Assembly: GCA_016235085.1 (NCBI GenBank)
Contig: JACRMA010000043.1
Span: 7,327-71,326 of the forward strand
Direction of reading: 5' to 3'
From: Candidatus Zixiibacteriota bacterium
GTDB taxonomy: Bacteria; Zixibacteria; MSB-5A5; WJJR01
Length of the DNA: 64,000 nt
Below are positions 12,326 to 46,242 of this stretch, one piece after another (the first letter of the stretch is position 1; every line of letters begins with the position of its first letter). The translations under genes and the position numbers were made by a program. The notes beneath the pieces are model-generated. The model searched no databases. It was given only the letters and a program-made list of their open reading frames with translations, and had not been told where the DNA came from.

Positions 12326-13460
12326 CGGCGGCCGAGCCTGTCCCGTCGCGCGTCACGCCCAGCGCGGTGGTGCTGGTCAAGTTGTGAGTGAAGGCGATTT
12401 CATCAAGACGGGAGGTGGAGGTGCCAGACCCCCCGCGCACATTAATGAGAGTGGCCGTGTTGGCAATTACGACCGGAGTCAGAGTTGCTGATCCGGTGGT
12501 GAGCGTGCTGCCAACCGCTATTGTCCCTGACTGCACGGTGGACGCATCGGTCAACGTCACGACTTCCCAGGCAACGTCCGCCGTGTTGGTTGTGGAGATA
12601 CGATCAAAGGTGAGCTGGGTTGCGGTCGTGATCCGGCCGCGAACGGAATATTGGGCTTCAATCCCATTTGTCGCAGCGGCACCGCGCCCGGACATGACGA
12701 GGAACGACTTGGCCAGATTGACTGATGTAATCGTGGCGGTAGCGGAACTGGCGCCCGAGGCAATCGTTGTCAGCCCGCGCTGGACCGATGCGCCAGTGTA
12801 CGAGACGACCTGCCAGTAGACATCGAGGGCGATCCCCGACTCGTTCCGGGTCAGTGCGAGATTGGTCGAGGTCGTCAATTGCGCGCGCACCGTCCACTGT
12901 TCATCAATCGTGCCACTCGCCGAGTTGGCTGCGACTGAAACCAGGACAAAGCTCTCGGCAAGATTCGCGGAAGTGATCGTCACGTTGACCGTCGTTGCGG
13001 CGGTCGAGAACGCAGCGGTGCCGCGCTGGACCGATACACCGGAAAGGAACTCGACCGCCTCCCAGTTGGCCGCGGTCGTTATCGCCGGAGAACCGAGACG
13101 TTGAAGATTGAGCGTTGTCCCGCTGGCGAGCTGGTAGCCGAAGCGGGTCGAATTGGCATTGGCGCTTGAGTTGCGTCCGCCGCCCCACTGAATCCCGCCC
13201 CAGACGATCGTCTTGGTGGCATCGACCGTGGTCAGAGTTACCGGGAGGGTATTCGCACCGGAAGTGAAAGTCGCGGTGCCGCGCTGAACCGATTTGATGA
13301 CCGCCGCGTGGACGGGATTGGCAGAGACGAGCAGGGCGAGAGCAGCAATCAAGAACAGAGCGCTCGCATTCACTCGGTACCCGGAACAACGCGAACCGCT
13401 GCGGAACGAAGATAGTCCCACAGTGGCCGTCGCCGCTTTCCTGATCGCCGGGGCGCGCAT
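1..13460 (-). CDS. Giant secreted tandem-repeat adhesin, 5' portion (N-terminal signal peptide at 13460; 3' end lies beyond the window start). Three ~100-aa 'VQRG' N-terminal repeats are followed by ~44 cadherin-like/He_PIG Ig-like 93-aa repeats. The reading frame is disrupted (see findings).
   Basis: Minus-strand ORFs 11313..13460, 5774..11506 and 625..5835 are contiguous pieces of one repeat-coding frame. N-terminus MRAPAIRK...ALFLIAALALLVSANPVHA is a signal peptide. The repeat unit ...PVLDSIRAKTVAENANLTFRTHATDPDGTIPTLTAVGVPLNATFVDSLNGAGSFVFNPDFTQSGV.NVTFI.SDGTLADSEVV.ITVTN.N... matches the He_PIG/dystroglycan-type cadherin-like pattern. Plus-strand ORFs in this span are antisense frames of the same repeat. 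Confidence 0.7.
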
Positions 13461-13503: not shown

Positions 13504-16140
13504 CTACTTCATCAACACCATCTTCTTCGTTTCCGAATTGCCGCCGGTGGTCAGGCGATAGAAGTACAGCCCGCTGGCCATCGTTTGTCCGGCTTGATCA
13601 GTGCCATCCCATATGTATTCATATCGGCCGGGCCCCAGGGTCCCATCGAACAGGGTCTTCACCTGCTGGCCCAGGAGATTGTAGACGACGAGGTAGACGG
13701 CAACGGACGGACCGCTGCTGCCGAGATCGCCCAGAGTGAACGCAATCGTTGTGGTTGGGTTGAACGGATTCGGATAGTTCTGGTCCAGGACAAAGCTTCT
13801 CGGAACCGGACTGACTCCGGAAACTTCGATCTGGCTGGCGTCCGGCGCGGCGAGCTTAAGCTCCTGCAGGCGGACCGTTGGTTCGCCCAGTGCCGGCGCG
13901 GAAGACAACGGAATGCGCAACACATCATGCCGGCCGGTCCGCATGTTGGGTGGACCACCCATCAGATTAAAGAGGAGCGCGCGCAAGTGCCCCTGGCCAT
14001 CGTCACGGAACCGCAACTGCATGTTGGTCGCGACGGCAAGGGCCTCCGGAGAACCGAGTGTCACCGTCGCGGGATCGTAGGCCAGTTCGACTTGGGCGCC
14101 CGCGACGTCCGAAGGCAGATCGGCCGACAGGCGGAAGGCGCCGCTGGGACCATCGTTACGGTCATAAATGAACTGCACGGTGGCGGGTGTGCCACCCACA
14201 GGCGGCACTCCGGGAGCCGGAACCACCGGGGCGCCGAAGATGTGGTTGATAATCGCCTGGAGATCGAAGACGTCGACGAAATTGTCGGCGTTGGTATTCG
14301 CCGCGCCAAACTGTCTCGGGTTAAACGGGAATGTCCCGAGGATGTAACCGACGACCGTGACGATATCCGCGACGTCAATACGCGTGTCCAGGTTTGCATC
14401 GCCCAGATTGTCGACCATGATGACGCCGTCGGTGGTCGCGATCGATGCAGAAGGCTCGGTGGGATCGGGATCGATCGAACCCCAGGCATCTTCGAACATC
14501 ACCGGGTAGGCGCCCGGTGCAACCGCTGGATTGATCGAACCAATCACATTGAATAGAACGGTTGTTGTTCCGTTCGCCACCGACTGGCCGGTCAGTGAGA
14601 AAGCGACGATGCGAATTCGTCCGGCGGTGGTTCCCATGTTGTCGTATACCGTGAATCCGATGAGTCTGTCGCTGGTTTGGATGGCGCTCGGTGTGAAGAT
14701 CGTGGCATCGTAGACAAAATCGAACTGAACACCGTAGGAAGCCTTCACATTCAGAAAGTTGATCGGAATCACCACTCCGCCCGTGCCGGGGACTCCGCCC
14801 TGCGCCTCCTGGCCGGGAGCAGACGTGGAGAACAAGCGATCAACCTGTACTTGATTGACCGTGATGGTCACGTTGCAGATAACGCTGAGATTATTCGCTG
14901 TGTCCTTGGCCTGGAATCCGACCGAGAAAATTCCGGACTGCGTGAAGCTGGGCGTCCATTTGAACGTTCCGGACGCCGAACCGGTCCCGCTGACCGGATT
15001 CGCGGGGAGCAGGGAATAACCCGTCGGCGCGTTCACGGGATACAATTGAATCGGATCATTATTGGCATCCGAAGCGCTGATGTTGAACGAGACTTCCTGT
15101 CCCTGATCGACCGTATAGCTGGTGTTTGACGGGCAGATCACCACCGGTGCCACGTTTCCGGTCGGCTGGGTCACCGTGATTGTGACATTGCAAAAACCGC
15201 TGGAGAGACCACCGGGTTGATCCGTCGCCTGGAAACTGACCGTGAAGTTTCCCGTCTGCGAGCTCGTCGGAACCCACGAGAAGTTTCCCGTCGCGGATCC
15301 CGTACCGACTACCGGGTTTGAGGGCGAAAACGATGCGCCGGTTGGCAGGTTGGTCGCGAGGAGAGAAACTGTGTTTCCGTCGGGATCAGTCGCGGGAACA
15401 GCGAATTGCACCAACTGCCCGGCACTGACCGTCACAGGCGCAGGGCAACTTGTGATTGAAGGAGGGTTGTTCCCGCCTCCGGTGGTAATCGTGATCGTTC
15501 CATTGATGAGAACAGGACGCCAAATAAGCAAACCGCTGATTTGAGCAAAGGTGTTGTCCGTTTGCGGATAAACTGGGTCATTCTCAAATGCGATGCTGGC
15601 CGTCTGCGGGGACGCCGTGGACCGGATGAGCCAGCGCATACGAACCGTCGCTCCCGCACCCGGCAGGAAGATATCGGGAGCGGATTTTGGGGCCTGATCC
15701 AACGCGAGCAGTTTGTAGACACCCGATGACGGAAGGCCTTCCGACCAGATGTCCGCATCCATCGCAGGAGACACGGTGGAGAAAGCCGTGCCCCGGATTT
15801 CCGTTGAGCGCTCCGCGGCGATTACCGTGTCAACGCCTGTTATGACAGTATCCAGTAACGGCGAGATAACACTCGGGTCATAGCGAACGCGAAATGTGAA
15901 CGCTCCTAATGTGTCCGCGTTGCGAATGTACAGATCGACATTCACTGTATCGCCCGGGTGCGCGATGGTCACGTTCACGATCCGCATGGTGTCCAGGGTC
16001 GACGGAGTCTGTGCCCAGGCGGAGCCAGCCGATAGGAGCAGCGATGCCGCCGACACAATGGCAATGACCAGAATGATGCGGCACAGCCCTGACACGGGTC
16101 TTCCGCAGGATCTTTCTCGATTTGTTTTCATGGACTTCAT
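13504..16140 (-). CDS. T9SS-secreted modular scaffoldin-like protein: signal peptide, cohesin-like module, two He_PIG/Ig-like domains, second cohesin-like module, dockerin-like module, third cohesin-like module, Por/T9SS C-terminal sorting domain.
   Basis: ORF 13504..16230 with the likely start at ATG 16140 (MKSMKTNRE..., signal peptide ...LLSAGSAWAQ). Cohesin-like signatures: GDTVNVDLYIRNADTLGAFTFRVRYDPSVISPLLDTV, GVQFDFVYDATIFTP, AGAQVELAYDPATVTL. Dockerin-like pair: GDANLDTRIDVADIVTVVGYILG / NTNADNFVDVFDLQAIINHIFG. C-terminus LDQNYPNPFNPTTTIAFTL...SGLYFYRLTTGGNSETKKMVLMK is a typical T9SS CTD. Confidence 0.75.
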   Translation of the reverse strand: MKSMKTNRERSCGRPVSGLCRIILVIAIVSAASLLLSAGSAWAQTPSTLDTMRIVNVTIAHPGDTVNVDLYIRNADTLGAFTFRVRYDPSVISPLLDTVITGVDTVIAAERSTEIRGTAFSTVSPAMDADIWSEGLPSSGVYKLLALDQAPKSAPDIFLPGAGATVRMRWLIRSTASPQTASIAFENDPVYPQTDNTFAQISGLLIWRPVLINGTITITTGGGNNPPSITSCPAPVTVSAGQLVQFAVPATDPDGNTVSLLATNLPTGASFSPSNPVVGTGSATGNFSWVPTSSQTGNFTVSFQATDQPGGLSSGFCNVTITVTQPTGNVAPVVICPSNTSYTVDQGQEVSFNISASDANNDPIQLYPVNAPTGYSLLPANPVSGTGSASGTFKWTPSFTQSGIFSVGFQAKDTANNLSVICNVTITVNQVQVDRLFSTSAPGQEAQGGVPGTGGVVIPINFLNVKASYGVQFDFVYDATIFTPSAIQTSDRLIGFTVYDNMGTTAGRIRIVAFSLTGQSVANGTTTVLFNVIGSINPAVAPGAYPVMFEDAWGSIDPDPTEPSASIATTDGVIMVDNLGDANLDTRIDVADIVTVVGYILGTFPFNPRQFGAANTNADNFVDVFDLQAIINHIFGAPVVPAPGVPPVGGTPATVQFIYDRNDGPSGAFRLSADLPSDVAGAQVELAYDPATVTLGSPEALAVATNMQLRFRDDGQGHLRALLFNLMGGPPNMRTGRHDVLRIPLSSAPALGEPTVRLQELKLAAPDASQIEVSGVSPVPRSFVLDQNYPNPFNPTTTIAFTLGDLGSSGPSVAVYLVVYNLLGQQVKTLFDGTLGPGRYEYIWDGTDQAGQTMASGLYFYRLTTGGNSETKKMVLMK

Positions 16141-29029: not shown

Positions 29030-29155
29030 TGCAAGGGGCTAAAAGCCTCTTGTCCGCGAGTGTGTCGTTTGCGCCGTTCGCAAGGGGCTAAAAGCCCCTT
29101 GTCCGCAATGGGTGCGCCATTCGTCGAGGACAACGGGCTTTCAGCCCCTTGCCGC
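29030..29155. repeat. Three tandem family B GC-hairpin elements (CAAGGGGCTAAAAGCCCCTTGTCCGC-type) downstream of rpmE; related copies at 32236–32262 and hairpins at 29263–29280 and 37228–37246.
   Basis: The same 8-bp stem / 5-nt loop hairpin plus the TGTCCGCAAT tail recurs. Confidence 0.7.
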
Positions 29156-29285
29156 TCGCGGCGCAATCTGCGTTGTCCTTCCGTTCCGGCAACCAACCCG
29201 CAACTCCTCAACTCCCGACAATACAAACGCGACGGGATGCTTGCGCACCCGTCGCGTGAACGCCCCTTGCGGGGCTGATGAATCG

Positions 29286-29534
29286 CTATGACTTCTGGCC
29301 GGCCTTCTCAGGAGCGGCGGCAGCCGGAGTCGCCTGAGTCATGCCGTATTTCTTCAGGAACTTCTCAACTCGTCCCGCCGTGTCGATGAGCTTCTGCTTG
29401 CCGGTAAAGAACGGGTGGCAGGCGGAGCAGATTTCGACGTGGAGGTCCTTCACGGTCGACCGGGTCGGAATCTCATTCCCGCAGGCGCAGTGGATCTTGG
29501 TGTCATAGTACTTCGGGTGGATTTCTGCCTTCAT
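29286..29534 (-). CDS. rpmE: 50S ribosomal protein L31.
   Basis: [27 protein letters not shown]...[13 protein letters not shown] with Cys motifs diagnostic of L31. GGAG lies upstream. The ORF track extends 5' to 29765, but the conserved start is MKAEIHP. Confidence 0.85.
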
Positions 29535-31619: not shown

Positions 31620-31645
31620 GGTGGGCAGAGCCCACCCTACATTCG
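31620..31645. repeat. Family C hairpin element GGTGGGCAGAGCCCACCCTAC; an identical copy at 33271–33291. Both lie just 5' of gene starts (aconitase gene; ccl).
   Basis: Identical 21-mer at two loci, each immediately upstream of a start codon on the minus strand. Confidence 0.7.
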
Positions 31646-32180: not shown

Positions 32181-32365
32181 GGGATTTTCCTCGCTATGGT
32201 CTACAATTGTCGCGAAGGATCACTCGGTTTGGGGTGACGTCAAGGGGCTGAAAGCCCCTTGTCCGCAATCGTGGCTATCAGCGCGATATGGGTACCTCAA
32301 TCGCCGCTCTGCTATTTACGGACTTTGTGGTCAATACTCTGCACCGTTGCCATTGAGCATGCCGC

Positions 32366-32432
32366 GAGGGCGAGGCCCCTGCCGAGCCTCTTTCCGCGCG
32401 GAAACATGGCTCGGCAGGAGCCTCGCCCTCCC
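32366..32432. repeat. Palindromic REP/MITE-like element, family A (GAGGGCGAGGCCCCTGCCGAGCC...GGCTCGGCAGGAGCCTCGCCCTCCC); copy 1 of 4.
   Basis: A near-perfect long inverted repeat read directly; related copies lie at 37795–37880, 43031–43102 and 45903–45938. Confidence 0.8.
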
Positions 32433-32468
32433 AGCCCGCGCCACCTGTCGGATTGTGGACACTCAGTA

Positions 32469-33248
32469 TCATTTAAGGTGGCGGATGGCTGGACCGTCGT
32501 AGGTCGTATCAGTCGGGTGAATCTGGCGCATTGGTTTTTGACGGGTTCGCTCTTCATGGGCATGCGCCACCAAACCGGGCAGACGCGCAATCATGAAGAA
32601 CGCATTCGCCAGGGCGGGCGGCACGTTCAGGTCGAGCAATACCGCTGCAATCGCACCGTCGACATTGAGGGGCAGCGGCTTTCCGGTCACCTTGGCAATG
32701 GTCGTCTCGAGCGCCCGCGCCATCGCCAGTCCGTCTTTCGCCTTGCCAAGGTCGTCGACCAGTTGCAGCAAGCGCGTCGTTCGGGGGTCTTTGGTGTGCA
32801 GGCGATGGCCAAACCCTGGCAAGCGCGCTCCGCGTGCCTTGTAGCTATCAAATGTGGCGAGGGCGGCATCTTCGAACGACAGGCCCTTGCTCTTTGCCGC
32901 AGCCACCGCTTCACTGATTGCCTTCATCGAATCTTCGATGGCGCCGCCGTGGAATTTGGAAATCGAGAGAATGCCGGCGGCAACCGCCGCACCGAGCGGC
33001 GCACCGGTCGAGGCGACGGTGACGGTTGAGAGGACAGATGGCGGCGAGGTGCCATGGTCCACCGATGAGACAAAGATCGCGTTGAGGATGGTGGCGGTCG
33101 CGGGATCAGGAAGTTCGCCAAGGAGGGCCAGATGGATGGCTTCGGCGAAGCTGATCTTGCCCATCAACTCTTCGACCGGGTATCCGCGGAGGCGGATGAC
33201 ATTGGGGCCGATCTCGGTAATTGCGGATGACCAGTTCATGTCGCCCAT
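32469..33248 (-). CDS. ccl: Short citrate-synthase-like protein, candidate citryl-CoA lyase.
   Basis: 259 aa carrying the citrate-synthase family motif GFGHRLHTKDPR and resembling the C-terminal citrate-synthase-like domain of ATP-citrate lyase. It lies immediately downstream of a succinyl-CoA-synthetase-like pair. AGGAG lies 6 nt upstream. Confidence 0.65.
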   Translation of the reverse strand: MGDMNWSSAITEIGPNVIRLRGYPVEELMGKISFAEAIHLALLGELPDPATATILNAIFVSSVDHGTSPPSVLSTVTVASTGAPLGAAVAAGILSISKFHGGAIEDSMKAISEAVAAAKSKGLSFEDAALATFDSYKARGARLPGFGHRLHTKDPRTTRLLQLVDDLGKAKDGLAMARALETTIAKVTGKPLPLNVDGAIAAVLLDLNVPPALANAFFMIARLPGLVAHAHEERTRQKPMRQIHPTDTTYDGPAIRHLK

Positions 33249-33286
33249 GATTGCTCCTGACGTACAAAAGGTGGGCAGAGCCCACC

Positions 33287-34213
33287 CTACTCGATTATGG
33301 GAATCTTCGCGGTCTCCATCGGCCGGATGATCGTCTTCACCGCGTCCGGGATATCGCCGAAGTTGTCGACGACCGTAGCACCGACTTCACGCAGACGCTT
33401 GACCTTGCCGTCGTGCGTGCCCCGGTCGCCTTCAATGATGGCACCGGCGTGGGAGAAGCGCGTTCCCGACTGCGCCCCTTTGCCGCCGATATACGCGACC
33501 AGTGGTTTGGTGAATTTGCCTGATGCGATGAGGTCGGCAACGCGTTCTTCCTGTGAGGTGCCGATTTCGCCAAACATCACGACGCAATCGGTATCGGGGT
33601 CCGATTCGAACAACTCCATGACCGCCGGATGATCGGTACCGATGATCCCATCGCCGCCGACATGGATGATGGTTGATAGCCCGATTCCGGCGCGCGAGAG
33701 GTAATACGCAATTGATGATGTGATACCACCGGAACGAGAGGTCACGCCCACGCGCCCGGGAAGGAACCAATCCTTTGCCGAAGAGGCCGATCCGCCGATC
33801 ATGCCGAATACCGCCCGGCCGGGTGACAGGAGTCCCAGCGTATTGGGACCGATGAAACGGGCACCGGCATCCTTGGCGGCAGCGGCGATCTCTAGAACAT
33901 CATAAATTGGGACACGGTCGGGCACGATTACGAGGAGTTTGATCCCCGCTGCGATGGCTTCGAGAGCCGCGTTCTTCACCAGCGGCGCGGGGACGAAGAT
34001 CGTGGAGACATCGATGGAACCCATCTTCTCGACAGCTTCCATGACGGTATCGAAGACCGGCACACCCAGGACATCCTGTCCCCCTTTGGCGGGTGTGCAG
34101 CCGGCGACAACCCGGGTGCCGTAGCGCTGCATGAGCTGGGTGCGCGCCATCCCCTCGCGGCCGGTGATGCCCTGCACAATGACTGTCTTGGTTTCGTCGA
34201 CGAGGATGCTCAT
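33287..34213 (-). CDS. ccsB: Succinyl-CoA synthetase alpha-like CoA-binding subunit (candidate citryl-CoA synthetase small subunit).
   Basis: VIVQGITGREG...TPAKGG...phosphohistidine loop RFSHAGAIIEG. Confidence 0.75.
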   Translation of the reverse strand: MSILVDETKTVIVQGITGREGMARTQLMQRYGTRVVAGCTPAKGGQDVLGVPVFDTVMEAVEKMGSIDVSTIFVPAPLVKNAALEAIAAGIKLLVIVPDRVPIYDVLEIAAAAKDAGARFIGPNTLGLLSPGRAVFGMIGGSASSAKDWFLPGRVGVTSRSGGITSSIAYYLSRAGIGLSTIIHVGGDGIIGTDHPAVMELFESDPDTDCVVMFGEIGTSQEERVADLIASGKFTKPLVAYIGGKGAQSGTRFSHAGAIIEGDRGTHDGKVKRLREVGATVVDNFGDIPDAVKTIIRPMETAKIPIIE

Positions 34214-34277
34214 ATGTTACCGTTGCGTGCATTCGGAGCCGGGCGCCCACATAGGGGCGCCCCTACGGAATCTGCGA

Positions 34278-35840
34278 CTAAGCCCCCATTATCTTTGCGC
34301 GGTATTCTTCCAGTCCGGGGATCGGGAGGATTACCCGGCCACCGGAATTGCCGCCGATACGGCACTCGACTTCGCACGCCAGACATTCGATGCACTTACC
34401 GGCTTTGGCGTCCTCTCGTGAGATGTTCAGGACAACAACGCCATCCTGATTCTTGAGGATTTGCGGCACACAGGTCTGAACGCAGCTCTTGGTCTGGCAC
34501 TCGCGGCACAGTGCGTGATCGAGCACGACTTTCCCGGTTGGTGTTTCAAACGAGTATGGATCTTTGGCGGTAAAGTCCGGAGTGACCGGCAGGGCCATCT
34601 GGCGCGGGGCGGCTTTGTCCGGTTGCGCCTCGAGCAGTTTCTGCATGCGCTGGGCGCAGAAATCAGCTGTGTCGTCCTTCTTGTAACCTTCCACCGGAGC
34701 CGGGAGATTCTTCGTGTATTCGGTGAGAATCTGGATCGCCTTGTCCTCACCATTGCCGCCAAGCCGGATCACGGCGGGAATCGAGAGATTCTCCTCCCAA
34801 AACGCCTTGACCAGGCCGCGTGCCGAATGGAACTGCTCCTGCGACGCAACACCCGAACCGGAACCGAAGTAGCCATCGATGTTGGGCTGGGAGAGAATAA
34901 TCTTGGCGGCACGATAGACCTTGGATGCCGGCGGATTTCCGGAGGTGTCGGTGAAATTGGCGATCGTGTACCCGCGTTTCACCAGTGCATCCATCGACAT
35001 CATCGAGCCGCCTCCGCCCGCACCATGGAAGCCGATGAATCCTTCGCCCTTCTTGTAGCCGCGCGCCATTTCAATGAAGTAGAAGGTGCCCCGGTAATCG
35101 TCCTTCTCGACAGACCAGGCGATCTTGTCCAGGGCGGTTGGCGGCCGGCCGAATTCACGGGCGATTTCGATTTTGAGCTCAGGATGGCGGAAGACCGCGC
35201 TGTCATCGACAGTGATCCGGCAGTCGCAGGCGACGAGCTTGCCATCGCCACGGAGCACAAGCGGATTGATCTCCGCCGAGCGGGCTTCCCATTGGCGGGC
35301 AACGCGATAGAGTGTCAGCAATGCCTTCGTCAACTCGTTTTGCAACGAGCCGGTCACACCGGTCTTGCGCACCGCCTCGCGCGCTTCGTACTCGCGCAGG
35401 CCGAAGCGCACATCAACCGGAGTCTTGGAAACATTCTTCGGGTATTTGCGCGCCAACTCCTCTATTCCGGAGCCACCGATGGAAGAGAAGATCACGACGG
35501 GGGTCTTGTTGGCATCATCGACGACGATGCCGGCGTAGAATTCACGGTTGATGTCGACCTTTTCTTCGATCAGGACTTCGGTGACATCGAAGCCGCCGAT
35601 CTTCAACGAAAGCATTCGTGCCGCCGCGGCGGTGACGTCACCAGCGTTGTCGGCGATGGCAATGGCGCCCTGAGCCGCTCGGGATGTGGTCCAGGCCTGC
35701 GCTTTGACCACGGCGGGAAGTCCACTGATTGCCAGGGCCGCCGGGACCTCACCTTGCGAGCGGACGACCTGCCCTTTGGGGACAGCAAATCCTGCTTCCC
35801 TTAGGAGCTGTTTGCCGTGATATTCGTGTAGACGCGCCAT
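34278..35840 (-). CDS. ccsA: Succinyl-CoA synthetase beta-like ATP-grasp subunit (candidate citryl-CoA synthetase large subunit) with a C-terminal 2x[4Fe-4S] ferredoxin domain.
   Basis: N-terminus MARLHEYHGKQLLREAGFAVPKG (SucC-like ATP-grasp). The C-terminal ~100 aa carry CRECQTKSCVQTC...CIECLACEVEC, two CxxCxxCxxxC clusters. Start at ATG 35840 with AAGGTGA upstream. Confidence 0.75.
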   Translation of the reverse strand: MARLHEYHGKQLLREAGFAVPKGQVVRSQGEVPAALAISGLPAVVKAQAWTTSRAAQGAIAIADNAGDVTAAAARMLSLKIGGFDVTEVLIEEKVDINREFYAGIVVDDANKTPVVIFSSIGGSGIEELARKYPKNVSKTPVDVRFGLREYEAREAVRKTGVTGSLQNELTKALLTLYRVARQWEARSAEINPLVLRGDGKLVACDCRITVDDSAVFRHPELKIEIAREFGRPPTALDKIAWSVEKDDYRGTFYFIEMARGYKKGEGFIGFHGAGGGGSMMSMDALVKRGYTIANFTDTSGNPPASKVYRAAKIILSQPNIDGYFGSGSGVASQEQFHSARGLVKAFWEENLSIPAVIRLGGNGEDKAIQILTEYTKNLPAPVEGYKKDDTADFCAQRMQKLLEAQPDKAAPRQMALPVTPDFTAKDPYSFETPTGKVVLDHALCRECQTKSCVQTCVPQILKNQDGVVVLNISREDAKAGKCIECLACEVECRIGGNSGGRVILPIPGLEEYRAKIMGA

Positions 35841-36099
35841 AATCACCTTCGACCGGTTGGTTGCCCGGCCGGGCGAGCCAATATCACAGTGGCACAGTGC
35901 GTTGTCAACCATGGTCCGACCGACCCGTTGTAATCGAACCACATTCTGACATCGAAGGTCAACGAGTCTGTGACTGTAGCGCACCGGCCGTGTGTGATTG
36001 ACCTACATTTTGTCCGAACCCAGCCGATTTCACTTGTCCAAGCCGGCAAACTCCGGCAATACTTGCGCCCGACTCAACCGATAGGAAGGAGAACCTACA

Positions 36100-37218
36100 A
36101 TGGCCAAGTATAAGATTGCGTGGATGCCTGGAGACGGGATCGGCAAGGATGTTCTGGATGCGGCACGGGTTGTGCTCGATTCGCTCAAACTTGACGCGGA
36201 CTACATTAACGCGGATATCGGCTGGGAGTTCTGGTGCGAGGAGGGCAATCCGCTCCCCGAGCGTACGCTGAAGATTCTGCGGGAAACCAGGTGTGCCCTC
36301 TTTGGCGCGATTACATCGAAACCCAAGGAGGAGGCCGAGGCCGAACTGGCAGCGTCGCTCAAAGGAAAAGGATTGAAATACTCCTCCCCGATTGTGGGTT
36401 TGCGGCAGGCGTTCAACCTGCACACGAATCTTCGTCCCTGCAAGGCGTACCCCGGCAATCCGCTCAACTATCGCGACGACATCGACCTGGTTGTCTTCCG
36501 GGAGAACACCGAGGATTTGTACGCCGGCGTGGAATTTCATCCGGTGGCCGACGATCTGCGCGCCAAGCTGATCGAGCACAACAAAAGCATGAAGAAGTTC
36601 GACAAGGTCAAGGCCGAAGACCTTGCGATCTCTTGCCGGATCATCACCAGACCGGCGAGCCGCACGATTGTGACCTCGGCATTTGAGTACGCCAAGAAGT
36701 ACAGGTATCCGTCAGTGACACTGGTGGAGAAGCCCAACGTACTGCGCGAGACCTCGGGCCTGATCACCCGTACCGCCCGGGAAGTGGCGAAGGGGTACCC
36801 CGGCATCCAATTCTATGAAGCCAACATTGACGCGATGTGCATGTGGTTGATCAAGAACCCCAAAGATTACGGTGTGATGGTAACCTCGAACATGTTCGGC
36901 GACATCATTTCCGATCTGTGCGCACAGTTGGTGGGGGGGCTTGGGTTTGCGTCATCGGGGAATATCGGCGACAACTACGCTGTGTTCGAACCGACCCACG
37001 GTTCGGCGCCGAAGTACGCCGGCATGTACAAGGTCAATCCGATGGCCACGATTCTCACGGTCAAGTTGATGCTCGATTGGCTCGGCGAGACAGTCATGTC
37101 ATCACGTTTGGAGAAGGCAATTGCCAAGGTCATCAAGGACGGCAAGGTCCGGACGTACGACATGGGCGGCAGCAACACGACGCTCGAGGTGGCCGAGGCG
37201 GTGGCGAAGGCGCTGTAG
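36100..37218 (+). CDS. Isocitrate/isopropylmalate dehydrogenase family (beta-decarboxylating dehydrogenase).
   Basis: MAKYKIAWMPGDGIGKDVL N-terminal motif and family-wide similarity. AAGGAG SD upstream. Subfamily (ICDH, LeuB or homoisocitrate DH) not resolved. Confidence 0.8.
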   Translation: MAKYKIAWMPGDGIGKDVLDAARVVLDSLKLDADYINADIGWEFWCEEGNPLPERTLKILRETRCALFGAITSKPKEEAEAELAASLKGKGLKYSSPIVGLRQAFNLHTNLRPCKAYPGNPLNYRDDIDLVVFRENTEDLYAGVEFHPVADDLRAKLIEHNKSMKKFDKVKAEDLAISCRIITRPASRTIVTSAFEYAKKYRYPSVTLVEKPNVLRETSGLITRTAREVAKGYPGIQFYEANIDAMCMWLIKNPKDYGVMVTSNMFGDIISDLCAQLVGGLGFASSGNIGDNYAVFEPTHGSAPKYAGMYKVNPMATILTVKLMLDWLGETVMSSRLEKAIAKVIKDGKVRTYDMGGSNTTLEVAEAVAKAL

Positions 37219-37260
37219 GTAGACCTGATACTCAAGCCCCTTCGGGGCTGATATTGAGTA

Positions 37261-37851
37261 TTAAAGTGAATCGGTGAGTTTCTTGGTGTCGGTGACTGTG
37301 CCGGTGACTTGGCGGCGCAGTTTGATATGAGTGAGTTCCGGGTCCGATTCGAAGCCGTAGCCGGCCATGACATCTTTGTCGCGGGTGATGACGACATAAC
37401 CGTCGGTGTGGATCACCCGGTTTGAATCGTTCCAGGCCAAATGATCAGACTTGAGTTTCGTGCCCTTGTCGGTGGTGATCCCGACATTCCCGAAGACTTC
37501 CAGGCCGCGGCGGCGTTCACGGAGAAGCGCAGAGTCGGCGCGCAACACCGATGAATGTTTCCCCTCGGCATCAAAGAAGTCCACCAGCAGGCCATGTGAC
37601 CACGCGGAATCGCGATCGGCATAGCTGACGATGCGCTCGCTCTTGATCTTGGTCGTTACGACGGCGCCGGTTAGAAAGACAGTCGTTGCGTTGGTGGCTT
37701 CAGAGGAAGGGAATGACTGTGGCGGCGGTTTGACCGTTGTCTCCTGCGTGCCGCAGGAGGAGATGACGAAAAGGAGAAAGAGTAACGTCAGGCGCGAGGG
37801 AGGGCGATCCGCCGCGGCGGACTGCCGAGCCCCTTTTGCGCGTGGATGCAT
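37261..37851 (-). CDS. lptC: LptC-like LPS export protein (lipoprotein-type signal ...LLFVISSCG).
   Basis: ~190-aa LptC/DUF1239-like beta-rich sequence following kdsD–kdsC, the canonical gene order. The only in-frame ATG (37851) lies inside a palindromic repeat element. Confidence 0.55.
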   Translation of the reverse strand: MHPRAKGARQSAAADRPPSRLTLLFLLFVISSCGTQETTVKPPPQSFPSSEATNATTVFLTGAVVTTKIKSERIVSYADRDSAWSHGLLVDFFDAEGKHSSVLRADSALLRERRRGLEVFGNVGITTDKGTKLKSDHLAWNDSNRVIHTDGYVVITRDKDVMAGYGFESDPELTHIKLRRQVTGTVTDTKKLTDSL

Positions 37852-37880
37852 GGCTCGGCGGGAGCCTCGCCCTCCCTCAT
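37795..37880. repeat. Family A palindromic element, copy 2 (with an inserted GATCCGCCGCGGCGGA sub-palindrome); overlaps the predicted lptC start.
   Basis: Shares both arms with the copies at 32366 and 43031. Confidence 0.8.
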
Positions 37881-37951
37881 TGGCCAAGTACATGTTCCTT
37901 CGGTCACACCATCTCATCATATTTATGGAGGATCGGCCTCACATCTTACTG

Positions 37952-38995
37952 CTACACCGCACCGGAGGTGAGGATGTCGTGCAGGTGGATAATCCCCTGA
38001 GGGCGTCCGTCGTCGGCCACGACAAAGAGGGTTGTAATCTTGAAGTCTTCCATGCGGCCCAAGGCAACGACTGCGAGTTCGGACTTACTGATCGTTTTGG
38101 GGTTTTTCGTCATCACATCGGCTGCGCTGAGGGCAAATAAGTCGCCCTGACGTTCGACGTGGCGGCGCAGGTCGCCATCAGTGAAAATTCCGAGCAACCG
38201 GCCCTCGGAATCCAGCACTCCGGTCGCGCCCAGACGTTTGCGGGTCATTTCGACCAGAACGTCCTTGAACGGCGCATCGATGCCCACCAGCGGGATTTGC
38301 TCGCCGCCATGCATGAGGTCCGCCACGGTCAAGAGCAGACGCCGTCCCAACGCGCCCTTGGGGTGGAGACGGGCGAATTGCTCGACGGTCAGGCCACGTT
38401 CGGAAAGCAATGTCACGGCCAGCGCATCGCCGAGGGCCAGTGTGGCGGTGGTTGAACAGGTCGGCACCAGGTCGTGAGGTTCGGCTTCGCCGTCGACGGC
38501 CGCATCGAGAACCACATCAGCCCGTTTCGCCAGTTCGCAGTCGAGTCTGCCGGTAATGAGAATGATGGGAGTGCCGAGCCGTTTGAATGCCGGCAGCAGG
38601 TCACCGATTTCATCCGAGGCGCCTGACTTCGAGATGGCCAGTACGACGTCTCCGGCACCGACGACGCCAAGATCCCCGTGGCCGGCTTCTGCCGGATGGA
38701 GAAAGAAGGCGGGAGTTCCGGTCGAGGACAACGTCGCGGCAATCTTTTGGCCGATCAAACCGGACTTGCCCATTCCGGTTACGATTACACGGCCTTTGGC
38801 TTTCAGGAGGAGTTCTACGGCGGCGTCGAAATGGTGATCGAGCCGGGCCGCGAGTGCGCCAACCGCATTCGCCTCGCGAATGATCACATCACGGCCGATC
38901 CGGCACCGTCGGGAGGTGTCTCCCAGCGGTGAATGGAGCAATGCGTCGGTCTCCTGCGCCGGGTCAGACCCGATTGGATTCCACTGGGTGGTCAT
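37952..38995 (-). CDS. kdsD: Arabinose-5-phosphate isomerase (SIS plus tandem CBS domains).
   Basis: VIVTGMGKSGLIGQKIAATLSSTGTP SIS motif and C-terminal CBS pair. Operon context with kdsC and kdsA. Confidence 0.85.
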   Translation of the reverse strand: MTTQWNPIGSDPAQETDALLHSPLGDTSRRCRIGRDVIIREANAVGALAARLDHHFDAAVELLLKAKGRVIVTGMGKSGLIGQKIAATLSSTGTPAFFLHPAEAGHGDLGVVGAGDVVLAISKSGASDEIGDLLPAFKRLGTPIILITGRLDCELAKRADVVLDAAVDGEAEPHDLVPTCSTTATLALGDALAVTLLSERGLTVEQFARLHPKGALGRRLLLTVADLMHGGEQIPLVGIDAPFKDVLVEMTRKRLGATGVLDSEGRLLGIFTDGDLRRHVERQGDLFALSAADVMTKNPKTISKSELAVVALGRMEDFKITTLFVVADDGRPQGIIHLHDILTSGAV

Positions 38996-39528
38996 TCGTT
39001 TCCTTCTGTGGGCGGAGGCCAGACATAACCACGCGCCGCGAGCACGGCGTCGATGGCCTCGCGCACGATCCCGCGTCCGCCGGGCGATTGCCCAACCCAG
39101 GCCGCGATCTTTTTCATTGCGGGATTGGCATCGCAGGGGGCCACACTGATCCCCGCCAATTCCAGGATGGGCCGATCCTGCACGTCATCGCCGATGACAA
39201 GGCATTCGGCATCGGTGACCTGGTGCTTCGCTTTCAATTCTTGGTAGGCGATCTTCTTGTCAAAGGCGCCTTGAAATACATCATCAATGCGCAGGAACTC
39301 AGCACGGGTGCGCGTCGTGCGATCCTGGTTCCCCGTGATGATGGCGAATTTGATTCCCGCCAGGTGACCCATAAAGATGCCCACGCCATCGGGCACCCAG
39401 AATCGCTTTATCTTCTCGCCGTCCTCTCCGACGAACACGAAATTGTCGGTCAGCACCCCGTCGAAATCGAAGATCATCAGGCGAATCTTCGCCAGCCGGG
39501 CTTTGCTGGGCTTCCGGTTGTTAGTCAT
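38992..39528 (-). CDS. kdsC: Kdo-8-phosphate phosphatase (HAD superfamily).
   Basis: IRLMIFDFDGVLTDN HAD motif I and a KdsC-like sequence. Start ATG 39528 overlaps the kdsA stop. Confidence 0.8.
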   Translation of the reverse strand: MTNNRKPSKARLAKIRLMIFDFDGVLTDNFVFVGEDGEKIKRFWVPDGVGIFMGHLAGIKFAIITGNQDRTTRTRAEFLRIDDVFQGAFDKKIAYQELKAKHQVTDAECLVIGDDVQDRPILELAGISVAPCDANPAMKKIAAWVGQSPGGRGIVREAIDAVLAARGYVWPPPTEGNE

Positions 39529-40357
39529 GGCGCCCTGCAATCGTGGGGTGCGGCGTACCGGCGATCCGGTCTGCGGCATCGAACAGCCATTGAGTGTCTT
39601 TATCGGAGAGCGCCCGTTCCGGATCGGGATGAACCTCACAGAAGACGGCATCGACACCGACGGCGAGAGCCGCCCGCATCAGCGGCAGTAGAAACTCCCG
39701 TTTCCCGCCGGACCGTCCCCCGGCGGAGCCAGGGGTCTGGACAGAGTGGGAGGCATCGTAGCAGACGGGGAAACCCGCCTGCCGCATGATCGGCAGCGAG
39801 CGGAAGTCCACCACGAGGTCGCCATATCCAAACGTGGTGCCTCGTTCGGTCAGGATCACCTTGCTGTTGCCGGCACCGATGGCTTTGTCCGCGATGTGCG
39901 CCATATCGGAAGCCGAGACGAATTGGCCCTTCTTGATATTGATGGGCTTCCCGGTGGACGCGGCCGCGACCACCAGATCGGTCTGGCGGCAAAGGAACGC
40001 GGGAATCTGCAAAAGGTCCACAACGCCGGCGGCGGTGCGGGCTTCCTCGGGAGAATGCACATCGGTGGTAAGAGCAAGACCCGACTCGGCGCGGACTTTT
40101 TCAAGGACCCTCAGGCCCTCATAGAGCCCCAGACCAGTGAACGAATCCGAACGCAGGCGGTTGGCCTTGGTGTAGGATGCCTTGAAGACGATGGACTTGC
40201 CCGTCATCATTCCCAACTGCGCGAGGTGTCGGGCAATATCCAAGGCCATCTGCTCACTTTCCAAGACACATGGGCCGAGTATCCAAAGAAGTGGACCGCC
40301 CCCAATGGAGGCTGGGCCGATGTGGAAGTGCCGCGCGGAGGTATTGGGCATATTCAT
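39521..40357 (-). CDS. kdsA: 3-deoxy-8-phosphooctulonate (Kdo-8-P) synthase.
   Basis: Family-wide similarity (LLWILGPCVLESEQ..., DVHSPE..., CYDASHSVQ). Confidence 0.9.
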   Translation of the reverse strand: MNMPNTSARHFHIGPASIGGGPLLWILGPCVLESEQMALDIARHLAQLGMMTGKSIVFKASYTKANRLRSDSFTGLGLYEGLRVLEKVRAESGLALTTDVHSPEEARTAAGVVDLLQIPAFLCRQTDLVVAAASTGKPINIKKGQFVSASDMAHIADKAIGAGNSKVILTERGTTFGYGDLVVDFRSLPIMRQAGFPVCYDASHSVQTPGSAGGRSGGKREFLLPLMRAALAVGVDAVFCEVHPDPERALSDKDTQWLFDAADRIAGTPHPTIAGRHD

Positions 40358-40521
40358 GATTGAGCCTTGTACCGATCAGACTGAAGATCGGTGGGCGGAA
40401 TATACGAAATCGCCTGGTGTAGAAGTAGCGGCAAGGCAAACTGAAAACTGCCTGGCAACGCCTTGCCCATCAGAGAACAAGGGGCGGGCATCAGGCCCAC
40501 CCCTTCGTAAGATCAAGATGA

Positions 40522-42946
<2,425 letters not shown>

Positions 42947-43030
42947 TAGTGGATGCCATTTCGCTGAGGAGTGCCGTCACCTTTCGCGGCTCTCCCGGGA
43001 GGAGAGATGAGAAACGAGACCAGAAATCGG

Positions 43031-43102
43031 GGAGGGCGAGGCTCCCGCCGAGCCTCTTTGTTTCCGCGCGGAAACCTGGCTCGGCAGGAGCCTCGCCCTC
43101 CC
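43031..43102. repeat. Family A palindromic element, copy 3 (between kdsB and gatC).
   Basis: GGAGGGCGAGGCTCCCGCCGAGCCTCTTTGTTTCCGCGCGGAAACCTGGCTCGGCAGGAGCCTCGCCCTCCC. Confidence 0.8.
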
Positions 43103-43191
43103 ATCTCCGAATATCTGCGGTCTCAAGCAAGACCTCTGGAACACTTGTAGTTCTGGAGGAGGAATATGATCTTCCTCTCGGAGCGATTTTG

Positions 43192-43485
43192 TCACCCGAT
43201 AACTTTCGGCACACGGAAGAACCCGTCCTTGGAATCCGGTGCCTGTGATAAGGCGGTCTTCTGATCAAACGATGGTACCACGACATCGTCCCGCAACGCT
43301 TGCGCGTTCTTGATTAGCGGGAGGACGGGCTCCGAAGGTTCATCCCCCGTGATCGCTTCGGACAATTGCGCCATGTACTCGGTGATGCGCCCCAGTTCTC
43401 GGCAGAATCGTTCGATTTCCGCCTCGGTCAGTTCCAATTGGGCAAGCTTGGCGGTGTGGGCGACGTCTTCGGGGGAGATCGGCAT
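43192..43485 (-). CDS. gatC: Glu/Asp-tRNA amidotransferase subunit C.
   Basis: MPISPEDVAHTAKLAQLELTEAEIERF... is a typical GatC. The ORF track extends 5' to 43557. Confidence 0.75.
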   Translation of the reverse strand: MPISPEDVAHTAKLAQLELTEAEIERFCRELGRITEYMAQLSEAITGDEPSEPVLPLIKNAQALRDDVVVPSFDQKTALSQAPDSKDGFFRVPKVIG

Positions 43486-43636
43486 GGACGCTCCTGGTAT
43501 TGTCACCAAACAGGTCAGCGACAATTCGATGATAACTCCGGGGATCGGGAGCGTCAATCACGATCAGTCGGAACTTGTTCTGAGCGGAAGCGTCACATTG
43601 ATTGTGCGCGATGATCTTCAGACCGATGGAGGCGAA

Positions 43637-44815
43637 ATGAAGATTCCCATACACGACATTCAACAGATGCTCGCGAAATCCAATCTCGACGGCTGGCTTT
43701 TGTACGACTTCCACGGTTCCAATCAGATTGCTCACAATATTGTCGGCGTCAAGGGCATGGTGACGCGGCGGTGGGCGTATTGGGTGCCGCGCACCGGACC
43801 GGGGCAGATTATCCGGCATGCGATTGAAAGCAGCCCCTTTGCGCATCTGGGCGGCAACCAGCGGACGTACAGTTCGTGGAAGGCATTGGATGCGGCGGTG
43901 CGCGAAACGTTGGGCAGCGCCAGGCGGATCGCGATGGAATATTCGCCCAATAACGCCATCCCCTATATCGCCTGCGTCGACGCCGGGACAATTGAGAAGC
44001 TTCGGGGCTGGGGGTTGGAGATTGTCTCCTCTGCCGATTTGGTGGCCCACTTCCTCGCACGCTGGACACCGGAACAGACCGCTGGACACCACCGCGCTGC
44101 GGCGGAACTGATTGACATCAAAGACCGGGCGTACGCGATGATCGCCGCCCGTGTCCGAAGCGGCGTCGAGCTGACCGAATACGAAGTCACCGAATTCATC
44201 AGGAACGAATTTGGCAATCGCGGTATGGTCACCGACGACGGTCCGATTTGTGCGGTCGATGCGAATGCGGGGAATCCGCATTACGAACCATCGGCCACAC
44301 ACTCGGCCCACATCGAGCGGAACCAACTGGTCCTGCTCGACATCTGGGCGAGACTGGACACCCCTGACTCCGTCTTCGCCGATATCACCTGGACCGCCTA
44401 CACGGGAGGCGACATTCCCACTAACGTCACCGATGTTTTCGAGATTGTCCGGCGGGCGCGGGATCGAGCAGTCGAGTTTGCGAATGAGAAGCTGGCCGCG
44501 GGGGCGCCGCTCTACGGATACGAAATCGACGACGCTTGCCGCGACGTGATCGCTAAGGCCGGGTACGGGGAATTCTTCATTCACCGTACGGGGCATTCGA
44601 TTGGAGGGACAGTTCATGGCATCGGCCCCAACATCGATAATCTGGAGACGCAAGATCAACGGCGGCTGGAAGACGGGATGTGTTTCTCCGTCGAGCCGGG
44701 AATTTATCTCCCGGAGTTTGGGATCCGCTCCGAGATCGACGTGCTTATCGAAAACGGACGGGCGGTGGTGACCACATTGCCGCTGCAAACGGAAGTCGGG
44801 CGGTTGGCGGTTTGA
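43637..44815 (+). CDS. M24-family metallopeptidase (Xaa-Pro aminopeptidase/prolidase-like).
   Basis: C-terminal pita-bread fold motifs (HRTGHSIGGTVHG, SVEPGIY). Start ATG 43637 with a GGAGG SD. The ORF track starts earlier in an antisense overlap with gatC. Confidence 0.65.
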   Translation: MKIPIHDIQQMLAKSNLDGWLLYDFHGSNQIAHNIVGVKGMVTRRWAYWVPRTGPGQIIRHAIESSPFAHLGGNQRTYSSWKALDAAVRETLGSARRIAMEYSPNNAIPYIACVDAGTIEKLRGWGLEIVSSADLVAHFLARWTPEQTAGHHRAAAELIDIKDRAYAMIAARVRSGVELTEYEVTEFIRNEFGNRGMVTDDGPICAVDANAGNPHYEPSATHSAHIERNQLVLLDIWARLDTPDSVFADITWTAYTGGDIPTNVTDVFEIVRRARDRAVEFANEKLAAGAPLYGYEIDDACRDVIAKAGYGEFFIHRTGHSIGGTVHGIGPNIDNLETQDQRRLEDGMCFSVEPGIYLPEFGIRSEIDVLIENGRAVVTTLPLQTEVGRLAV

Positions 44816-44825
44816 GCGTCAGATT

Positions 44826-45767
44826 ATGGGAAGAACGGGAAGTATGGGAAGCATGAAATCGCGCGGCGCGAGGAAGACACTCGCGCCAGCGCGGCGTCGG
44901 ATGTTGGTCGAGCGGATGGCGGGTGTGCCATTCCCGAATCTGCTGGGGATGAAGCTGGTCAAGCTGGTGCCGGGGGAGGCCAGGATCAGCATGGCCGGAG
45001 TGCCGAAGCTGCACCAGTACCAGAAGATCGTGCACGGCGGGGCGATCTCGTCACTGGCCGACACTGCCGCGACCTTCGCCGCACTGGCGAGCGTTCCTGA
45101 CGGGTTCGATGTCATCACGATTGAATTCAAACTCAACTTTCTAGCGCCGTTTGCGAGCGGCAAAGCGATTGCCACTGGACGGATTGTACATCTGGGACGG
45201 CGAACCTGTGTGTCCGAGGTCAGTATCAAGAAACCCGGCTCCGGCGAGACAATCGCGGTTTGTTTGTTTACGATGTTGTGCTTTCAAGTGGTTCCCTTCA
45301 TCAGCGGCAGCCAGAAGCATGGACGGCAGCATGACATCACATTGTATATCGAAGGGGATGGGCAGATCGCGGTGATTGCGAAGCCGTTCTACCCGCCCAG
45401 CCTGTATCGTGCCCCGTCGGGCGGGCTGGAACCCGGTGAAATACTGGAGACGGGTGCGGCAAGAGAGGCACACGAGGAGACAGGGCTCGATGTCAAACTC
45501 GCCAGTTATCTGCTTGTGGCAACGGTAGTCTTTACGTGTCCGGACAAACCTGCAATCGAGTGGCACACGCATGTGTTCTCGGCGACGACCTTTGATCGTA
45601 CACTTGCTCCCACCGATCACCACGAAATTCGCGAAGCCCGCTGGGCCGATCCGTCTGAATTCGCCACCTTCGGTGCCATCATGCGCGAATCGCAACGCGG
45701 CGGGCTGTTGTATCGTGCCGCGCTGCACGATCAAGTTGCGAAGATCCATCCGTTGTTCCAGCATTGA
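44826..45767 (+). CDS. Fusion protein: PaaI/4HBT hotdog thioesterase domain plus NUDIX hydrolase domain.
   Basis: N-terminal half carries IVHGGAISSLADTAA (hotdog/PaaI motif). C-terminal half carries the Nudix box GGLEPGEILETGAAREAHEETGL. Confidence 0.55.
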   Translation: MGRTGSMGSMKSRGARKTLAPARRRMLVERMAGVPFPNLLGMKLVKLVPGEARISMAGVPKLHQYQKIVHGGAISSLADTAATFAALASVPDGFDVITIEFKLNFLAPFASGKAIATGRIVHLGRRTCVSEVSIKKPGSGETIAVCLFTMLCFQVVPFISGSQKHGRQHDITLYIEGDGQIAVIAKPFYPPSLYRAPSGGLEPGEILETGAAREAHEETGLDVKLASYLLVATVVFTCPDKPAIEWHTHVFSATTFDRTLAPTDHHEIREARWADPSEFATFGAIMRESQRGGLLYRAALHDQVAKIHPLFQH

Positions 45768-45902
45768 TCCGGTCTTTGCAACCATTCCACGTAAGACCGG
45801 AAACTCGGTTGTGGCCGCGGCCCTGGTTTCCCGCTTTCACGGGAATGACGTGGGCATTGCGCCGGGTACCAAACGCATTCGCGATCGAGTTATATGCCCC
45901 GT

Positions 45903-45938
45903 GAGGGAGGGCGATCCGCCGCGGCGGATCGCCCTCCC
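45903..45938. repeat. Family A palindromic element, short copy 4 (GAGGGAGGGCGATCCGCCGCGGCGGATCGCCCTCCC).
   Basis: Perfect 17-bp arms shared with the insertion in copy 2. Confidence 0.75.
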
Positions 45939-46242
45939 ACTCGCGCTCTCTCCCGATTCAATCAGAGATCCAGATCAGGCCGCTTCACCTTCCAACTCTT
46001 TTTGGCACGATTGCCACAGTCTGTGGGTTTCATCCTACAACAGTCTGCCTCGCTCTTTGGGAATGCAGGGATGATCAGACGCTTTCTGGTTTCGCGAGCC
46101 CTCCATAATTCATTCCCGTTCAACGTATTACATCTCAACCGATAACCTCGCCAACAGAGAATTCATACCCGGCACCGTGCTTGCAATAGGGGACATCGAG
46201 CCGATGTGTGTCGGCTCTATTGCAGGCGAAAGGACGAGCCTA

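Follow-up and report, generated by a model that had tools for sequence, protein, structure and literature searches.

A REP/REPIN-type palindromic repeat with a GGGAG foot in a Zixibacteria contig, and its probable in-frame insertion in lptC

Four GC-rich inverted repeats lie within 14 kb of a 64,000-nucleotide stretch of DNA from a Candidatus Zixiibacteriota bacterium (contig JACRMA010000043.1, positions 7,327 to 71,326; the whole stretch is called the window below), three of them between genes and the fourth within the 5′ coding region of lptC. The question they raise is whether they are mobile repeats, and of which kind, or hairpins that the host keeps for its own use. Motif counts and folding recovered all four repeats, here named A to D, near the positions given in an earlier note, which had called them a REP/MITE-like family (repetitive extragenic palindromes, REPs; miniature inverted-repeat transposable elements, MITEs). 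They are probably a REP family without the GTAG tag, found solo and as the inverted REP doublets termed REPINs, and would be mobilised by an enzyme of the HUH-Y1 type. The four elements are:

32364–32432: element A, a REP doublet with arms at 32364–32388 and 32408–32432 and a 19-nt loop; −76.0 kcal/mol on the transcribed minus strand, z −10.3
37798–37876: element B, a hybrid doublet within the 5′ coding region of lptC, with the loop at 37827–37851 and a canonical right arm at 37852–37876
43030–43102: element C, a canonical REP doublet with arms at 43030–43054 and 43078–43102 and a 23-nt loop; −72.8 kcal/mol on the minus strand
45905–45938: element D, a perfect 34-nt "double-foot" palindrome, GGGAGGGCGA-TCCGCCGCGGCGGA-TCGCCCTCCC

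The unit common to the four elements, GGCTCGGCRGGAGCCTCGCCCTCCC, was matched five times in the window with no match expected by chance. Five matches at up to 3 mismatches were also obtained for the arm motif GGCTCGGCAGGAGCCTCGCCCTCCC, compared with none in 100 dinucleotide shuffles, and three for the variant core GGGAGGGCGATCCGCCGCGGCGGA, again with none in shuffles. The elements hold 7 arms altogether; the other 50 kb carries none, and no further copy was found in the 64-kb window at up to 6 mismatches. The arms of A are 25 nt each, the left one with 2 mismatches, and those of C are 96% complementary. The left arm of B consists of GGGAGGGCGA + TCCGCCGCGGCGGA + CTGCCGAGCC, in which the 14-nt palindrome TCCGCCGCGGCGGA stands in place of GGCTC. 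Since an identical 24-nt variant core is present at both B and D, this sub-variant appears to have been copied between loci, by transposition or gene conversion. The predicted folds of A to D have energies from −41 to −76 kcal/mol. The z-scores of A, C and D fall between −5 and −10; B, whose predicted structure is branched, scores −3.2/−3.6.

Element A is located 36 nt past the stop of a citrate-synthase-like (citryl-CoA lyase-like) gene and upstream of an HD-domain gene, both on the minus strand, and element C between the stop of gatC (43192) and the start of kdsB (42946), also both on the minus strand. Element D follows a plus-strand thioesterase-NUDIX gene at a distance of 137 nt. A loss of gatC at site C was considered and rejected, as the gene is present at 43192–43485.

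The anatomy of the single arm was established from 281 matches (up to 6 mismatches) in the window and 133 public loci, of which 69 distinct arms with at most 5 mismatches were aligned for the analysis of covariation. On the complementary strand the unit reads 5′-GGGAG followed by GGC, GA, GGC, TCCY, GCC, GA and GCC, that is, an unpaired 5-nt foot and a bipartite stem with a GA/GA internal loop and a TCCY tetraloop. Positions 6/15, 7/14, 3/18 and 1/20 changed in pairs, from GC to AU, CG or UA. For the fold (((..(((....)))..))) with its 5-nt tail, 28 doubly changed cells were counted versus 4.7 ± 1.9 in shuffles (0 of 500 reached 28), and 91% of the cells were paired versus 29–58% with a slid partner. 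The minimum-energy fold on the GGGAG strand is identical to this covarying fold, whereas a rival 5-bp arm hairpin, GGCTC/GAGCC, showed no covariation and was rejected. Covariation and minimum-energy folding thus both identify a short imperfect palindrome with a stem-loop fold, as is typical of a REP, and the foot has the position and geometry of the GTAG tag. The unpaired positions (foot, internal loop and tetraloop) vary less than the stem positions, with the tag GGGAG/CTCCC conserved to at least 87% at each position. Such a pattern would be expected of a folded single strand that is read by a protein.

Within the same loci, 164 arms are arranged in 87 doublets with the feet pointing outwards, and not a single doublet has its feet inwards; 80 arms are solo and 21 stand in direct arrays. 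With a median spacer of 27 nt, the doublets have the REPIN arrangement of two inverted REPs separated by a short spacer, and like a REPIN the doublet can also fold as one long hairpin. At 59 non-redundant doublets no target-site duplication was detected, the lengths of direct repeats matching those of a shuffled control; directly outside the foot, some 80% of cases have Y at −1 and R at +1. The spacers and loops are unlike between lineages and related among the Zixibacteria copies, in which they have the common core TTTCCGCGCGGA. For this reason the doublet is best understood as being copied as a unit within a lineage, with the arms alone common to different lineages. A mosaic resembling bacterial interspersed mosaic elements (BIMEs) was found in a Planctomycetota metagenome-assembled genome (MAG; locus L064, 4108–4237), where a REP of the type associated with class 3 TnpA-Y1 enzymes, a GTAG REP, a GGGAG unit and another GTAG REP follow each other in the same orientation within ~130 nt. 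Judged by this company, the GGGAG unit would belong to the same class of object as REPs.

Solo GGGAG units were also seen within longer repeated modules in MAGs of Planctomycetaceae (L023, L031, L032, L047, L084, L109 and L116). These modules carry ...GGGACCACCGAGCACCAGCTCGGTAAC... or ...GGCCGGGCAGGAATGCCCGGGCTAC... upstream of the unit and AAAGGGGACTTTG downstream, which suggests larger composite repeats in those genomes.

The exact 25-mer, with R at position 9, was found in 14 viral contigs and, in a one-genome-per-species collection, at no fewer than 119 genome loci. About four-fifths of the matches listed are labelled Planctomycetota (Pirellulales, Planctomycetales, Gemmatales, Isosphaerales and Phycisphaerae); among them are two closed chromosomes, OY970228.1 and OY970289.1. 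The remaining labels among the matches listed are Verrucomicrobia, Armatimonadota, Acidobacteriota, Binatia, Nitrospirales and others. Several MAGs have matches on 3–6 contigs each. The 25-mer is identical in Zixibacteria (the window and loci L134–L139) and in many orders of Planctomycetota; because the GC content casts doubt on some of the other labels, only these two phyla are taken as secure hosts. Some MAG labels or bins may be wrong, which makes the breadth past Planctomycetota and Zixibacteria uncertain: loci L030, L059, L120, L072 and L089, labelled Kuenenia, Ignavibacteria and Chthonomonas, have a GC content of 56–64%, above the expectation for these taxa. No match to the element was obtained in plasmid and phage collections, and none to the D-type palindrome in a viral scan; a metagenome scan with the Zixibacteria-specific loop pattern gave two chance matches only. 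A full-text literature search for the unit sequence and its peptide translations returned nothing.

Do the elements come and go at orthologous sites? Comparison of syntenic contigs of relatives from independent assemblies revealed presence/absence variation at all four. Site A is filled in the window, L134 and L139, and L138 is devoid of both the element and ~175 nt of its flank. Site B is empty in L139–L142. The gatC–kdsB spacer of L138 measures 50 nt and contains no element C, and at site D the same contig has a different small hairpin in place of the element. Three alleles were found at site B: the canonical doublet in L134–L137, the hybrid in the window, and in L138 a short palindrome, GGGAGGGCGA-TCCGCCGCGGCGGA-TTGTCCTCCC; length differences of 9 and 45 nt separate them. 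The series, in which the window allele resembles an intermediate, matches the proposal that "double-foot" REPs originate when the centre of an inverted dimer is deleted (PMC6006769).

Two features next to site D were recorded in the same comparison. A non-coding block of ~75 nt (window ~45978–46055) is ~90% identical to L138, though the neighbouring spacer is unalignable; it holds a small hairpin, CCACAGTCTGTGG, lies upstream of small unannotated ORFs (open reading frames) and has no Rfam or tRNA match. In the window the thioesterase (4HBT) and NUDIX domains are encoded by a single ORF of 313 aa (44826–45767), in L138 by two genes (2073–3187), so that the single ORF is either a gene fusion or the product of a lost stop codon.

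The copy within a gene requires separate consideration:

37261–37893, minus strand: lptC (PF06835), with the conserved upstream ATG, 37893, taken as its start; the lipobox Cys is codon 56 of the longest ORF

The encoded LptC is 91% identical to the homologue P0001 and, from Met24 on, identical to P0048 (MBI5867807.1, candidate division Zixibacteria). Nitrospira had been considered as the source in view of the ACL-type genes and 59% GC, and was discarded for Zixibacteria on the strength of the LptC identity. It had been proposed that element B overlaps the only in-frame ATG of lptC and may have supplied both the start codon and the signal-peptide n-region. The overlap and the n-region residues were confirmed; the ATG is not the only one, as four are in frame (37920, 37917, 37893 and 37851), and the start codon is more likely the upstream one at 37893. 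A non-ATG start downstream of the element, the alternative named in the earlier note, is excluded: no ATG, GTG or TTG occurs between the element and the lipobox Cys, and the start therefore lies inside or upstream of element B.

Alignment of homologues favours the ATG at 37893, which we regard as the probable start. Its position is shared by the three orthologues that carry the element, and it aligns beside the GTG start of the element-free L139, is preceded by the sole purine-rich Shine–Dalgarno-like tract (GAAGGAAC), and keeps the frame across the 9-nt and 45-nt allele indels. On these four points, element B is more likely an in-frame insertion in the n-region of a lipoprotein signal peptide than the supplier of a start codon. 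The ATG at 37851, chosen by NCBI for P0048, is a plausible, if less probable, second candidate; it is located at the edge of the element-B loop, is buried in the hairpin, has no Shine–Dalgarno-like tract nearby and is deleted in L138.

With either start, the sequence places the element-encoded Arg-rich residues in the n-region, from where they would be removed together with the signal peptide. Because these residues would be translated and then cleaved off, the insertion could be tolerated in the essential lptC. With the start at 37893, the hairpin begins at about +16. Among 18 aligned LptC homologues, 15 carry a short lipoprotein signal peptide of the usual kind, with the conserved Cys at its end; the element-encoded residues before the hydrophobic core (GGRGSRRA, ARQEPRPP and SAAAD) are found in the window, P0001 and P0002 only. 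The allelic series of lptC illustrates the decay of an element, from canonical doublet through hybrid to double-foot palindrome, and its harmless absorption in a coding sequence. It also bears on annotation: relative to the element, gene callers have not put the lptC start in the same place in window-type (P0048) and L134-type (P0001, P0049) alleles, and the family yields spurious ORFs with the peptides ARQEPRPP, GRSLALP and EGEAPAEP.

Whether the elements are mobile or serve their host can be weighed on these data. If the hairpins were immobile host cis-regulatory RNAs (terminators, attenuators, processing sites or mRNA stabilisers) kept by selection, the location of A, C and D between co-directional genes would be accounted for, as would the folding of A and C, which is better by 7–14 kcal/mol on the transcribed strand, where G–U pairs replace A–C mismatches; moreover, E. 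coli REP hairpins are established stabilisers of mRNA 3′ ends. However, the stems of A to D are not followed by a U-tract, the sequence after them not being T-rich, and a terminator scan called none of the four on the sense strand; its sole call was the arm-internal hairpin of C, in antisense. The combination of hairpin and U-tract on the transcribed strand that makes an intrinsic terminator is thus missing. In addition, one copy lies within a coding region, orthologous sites gain and lose copies, and the same 25-mer occurs solo, with unrelated loops and next to unrelated genes in many genomes. The fold favoured by the covariation is the small one within the arm, a competitor of the long hairpin, and Rfam 15 gave no match at gathering thresholds anywhere in the window (below threshold only miRNA-precursor noise, E ≥0.014). 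A purely regulatory origin is accordingly considered unlikely. An effect on RNA would be compatible with mobile REPs as a by-product, and by analogy with E. coli REPs and Correia/NEMIS elements the hairpins would be expected to block 3′ exonucleases or to be cut by RNase III, and not to work as intrinsic terminators.

Two further explanations are less probable still. The elements could be MITEs, with the 25-bp arms as the terminal inverted repeats of an insertion sequence (IS) with a DDE transposase that mobilises them in trans; their shortness, inverted termini, variable interior and presence/absence variation would suit this, but the direct repeats at the 59 doublets equal those of the shuffled control, no arm pair was found around a transposase, the plasmid and phage collections gave no match to the element, and solo arms, direct arrays and a covarying hairpin within each arm are all unlike terminal repeats. 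This is the least probable of the explanations and would be quite surprising. The REP half of the original REP/MITE-like description therefore holds, by virtue of a covarying hairpin with a foot, solo units and feet-out doublets, mosaics with GTAG REPs and the presence in many genomes; the MITE half is contradicted by the lack of a target-site duplication and of an IS-like full-length element between the arms. Alternatively, the units could be binding or recombination sites of a host DNA-binding protein, as BIMEs are for IHF, gyrase and Pol I, and have spread by gene conversion. The mosaic with other REP families and the strictly conserved unpaired positions agree with this, and the identical 24-nt core at B and D could be produced by gene conversion. 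Such a factor, however, would have to span Planctomycetota and Zixibacteria while the motif is absent from most bacteria; furthermore, the covariation indicates a folded single strand and not duplex recognition, and the strict feet-out geometry is typical of REPINs. We consider it improbable, though somewhat less so than the MITE explanation.

A REP/REPIN family mobilised by an HUH-Y1 enzyme accounts best for the observations. In the mechanism that we propose, an HUH-Y1 enzyme, either a REP-associated tyrosine transposase (RAYT) or, by the architecture of the unit, a relative of class 3 TnpA-Y1, would recognise the folded single-stranded unit through three of its features, the foot, the internal loop and the tetraloop. 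The enzyme would copy or move the units without target duplication, and the system would have crossed phylum boundaries. The three intergenic copies in the window would be passengers in spacers between co-directional genes, whereas the fourth would have entered the n-region of LptC in frame, tolerated as its Arg-rich residues are cleaved off. The lptC copy would then have diversified, through replacement of part of an arm by the 14-nt palindrome and through a deletion of the centre that left a double-foot palindrome.

Several results weigh against this assignment. Neither the window nor ~1.1 Mb of loci that carry the element yielded an HUH-Y1 gene, a weak negative given the means used, tblastn with RAYT, IS200 and IS608 TnpA probes and an HUH...Y regular expression. 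Inspection of ORFs between arms 350–1600 nt apart revealed no REPtron-like arm pair enclosing a transposase. When 4927 ORFs from 133 loci were clustered all against all, the groups obtained were families common in planctomycetes (DUF1501, PSD1/DUF1553, kinases and MoxR, among others) with no HUH-Y1 enzyme, and none was recognised in two unannotated L134 genes that were inspected. The GGGAG foot differs from the GT[AG]G and CGTC tags that define the known REP superfamilies, and also from the CnGA foot of class 3. Compensatory changes can arise in quasi-palindromes by templated mutation, without selection. The copy count is that of the 64-kb window, some labels outside Planctomycetota look doubtful by their GC content, and the cross-phylum identity contradicts the picture of vertical inheritance with lineage-specific sequences drawn for REPIN-RAYT systems. 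A bolder interpretation, which we put forward tentatively and think rather doubtful, is that the GGGAG unit represents a third REP superfamily beside GTAG and CGTC, as the substrate of a class 3-like HUH-Y1 enzyme with the GA/GA loop and foot as recognition code, and is transferred horizontally between Planctomycetota, Zixibacteria and possibly others. If true, this would contradict a strictly vertical inheritance of REPIN-type systems.

The window contains other repeats. A second hairpin family (hp2, CAAGGGGCTNAAAGCCCCTTG) gave 8 strand-hits versus 0 expected, in agreement with the earlier note; its "three tandem copies", however, turned out to be two direct copies and a degenerate inverted one. 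The hp2 unit consists of a GCGGA foot and a 9-bp hairpin, and three of the four window copies lie between rpmE and a DUF1385 gene, a site at which L138 has one copy:

29032–29057, minus strand: hp2 copy 1, GCGGA foot and 9-bp hairpin with one stem mismatch
29081–29106, minus strand: hp2 copy 2, perfect stem
29126–29151, plus strand: hp2 copy 3, inverted orientation, degenerate
32241–32266, minus strand: hp2 copy 4, upstream of the HD-domain gene; kept at this site in L134 and L138

Just after rpmE (29250–29300, minus strand), alignment with L138 (19290–19360) revealed a conserved hairpin and T-run, GCGACGGGTGCGCAAGCATCCCGTCGCGTTTGTATTG, which looks like a classical intrinsic terminator. The organism would thus use canonical terminators, unlike the REP hairpins.

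In addition, three canonical GTAG REPs of two sequence types, missed by the earlier note, are present in the very short spacers of the gene cluster of ATP-citrate lyase (ACL) type, which also includes succinyl-CoA synthetase (SCS)-like genes:

31620–31640, minus strand: GTAG REP GTAGGGTGGGCTCTGCCCACC, between the HD gene and an aconitase-like gene
33270–33290, minus strand: GTAG REP identical to the 31620–31640 copy, between the SCS-alpha-like and citrate-synthase-like genes
34241–34266, minus strand: GTAG REP of the other sequence type, GTAGGGGCGCCCCTATGTGGGCGCCC, in the spacer that separates the ACL-beta-like gene from the SCS-alpha-like gene

GTAG REPs also occur in the orthologous cluster of L134, L138 and L139, where their number differs, and a near-identical one was found in the Planctomycetota MAG L064. 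Between the ACL-beta-like and SCS-alpha-like genes, the otherwise 99.98% identical contigs L134 and L135 differ by 119 nt (L135 ~13985–14110). A fresh insertion was rejected as the cause, since the difference is an expansion of an 8-nt tandem repeat (AAGGACRA) that the window does not contain.

Other differences in gene content were seen among the syntenic contigs: a McrBC restriction module lies between pyrG and kdsA in L134 (2821–6161), a carbonic anhydrase gene between lptC and IDH in L138 (10663–11358), and an asparagine synthase gene is inserted in the otherwise syntenic locus of L139 (4688–6505). The left end of the window (1–13460, minus strand) is occupied by one or more giant repeat genes comprising 43 tandem units of 279 nt (93 aa) at 66–81% identity, with Pfam matches to bacterial cadherin-like and Big_9 domains. 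The reading frames (625–5835, 5774–11506 and 11313–13460) overlap, which suggests a single very large gene for an adhesin, interrupted by frameshifts or assembly slips; it continues beyond the left end of the window.

Among known palindromic repeats, Correia/NEMIS and ERIC-type MITEs also form long transcribed intergenic hairpins, are RNase III substrates and modulate mRNA stability. They have TA or other target-site duplications and terminal inverted repeats tied to DDE transposases, and no foot-plus-hairpin unit within the arm. The Rickettsia palindromic elements are ~100–150 bp long, AT-rich and lineage-restricted. Like these and other REP-tagged coding sequences, element B is an in-frame palindromic insertion where extra peptide is tolerated; unlike the Rickettsia elements, it sits in the cleaved n-region of a signal peptide and leaves the mature protein unaltered.

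With the REP/REPIN elements served by RAYTs (Nunvar 2010, PMC2817692; Bertels & Rainey 2011, PMC3116915; Di Nocera 2013, PMC3733652), the GGGAG units have in common an imperfect palindrome of 20–25 nt with an unpaired 5′ foot, the occurrence as solo copies, mosaics and inverted doublets folding as one hairpin, an intergenic location (three of the four window elements) and the absence of target-site duplication. Occasional in-frame insertions of REPs in genes have been described (PMC3733652), and canonical GTAG REPs occupy the same window. The differences are the GGGAG foot in place of a GT[AG]G or CGTC tag, the bipartite stem with its GA/GA internal loop, the letter-identical sequence across phyla where REPIN-RAYT systems are vertical and lineage-specific, and the fact that no RAYT was found with GGGAG units by the weak probes applied to the window and the ~1.1 Mb of loci.

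The closest architectural match appears to be the hairpins that flank class 3 TnpA-Y1 (HUH) genes, CnGAG-CCGC-GA-CC-GTNA-GG-GA-GCGG in Legionella and Solibacter (Quentin et al. 2018, PMC6006769, Table S1). They amount to ~600 copies in Solibacter, with a variant in Planctomyces, have a host range centred on Planctomycetes and Acidobacteria, and occur with near-identical sequence in different phyla (PMC6006769). Both kinds of unit are 25–26 nt long and have the same order of parts, a 5-nt 5′ foot ending in GAG, a 3–4-bp stem, a GA/GA 2×2 loop, a 2–3-bp stem and a tetraloop, and in L064 a class 3-type unit adjoins a GGGAG unit. They differ in sequence (CnGAGCCGCGACCGTNAGGGAGCG for the GGGAG unit versus GGGAGGGCGAGGCTCCYGCCGAGCC) and in the foot, which as GGGAG preceded by Y fails CnGA and has only GAG in common with CCGAG/CAGAG; no class 3 gene was seen beside any GGGAG unit in the loci covered here with the RAYT, IS200 and IS608 TnpA probes and the HUH...Y pattern. 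The unit is thus a real, well-defined repeat of REP/REPIN type and not a new kind of system, unusual for its kind in its foot, its GA/GA-looped stem and its cross-phylum identity, and it provides a handle for finding its enzyme, possibly a class 3 HUH-Y1, and for testing the horizontal spread of REPs.

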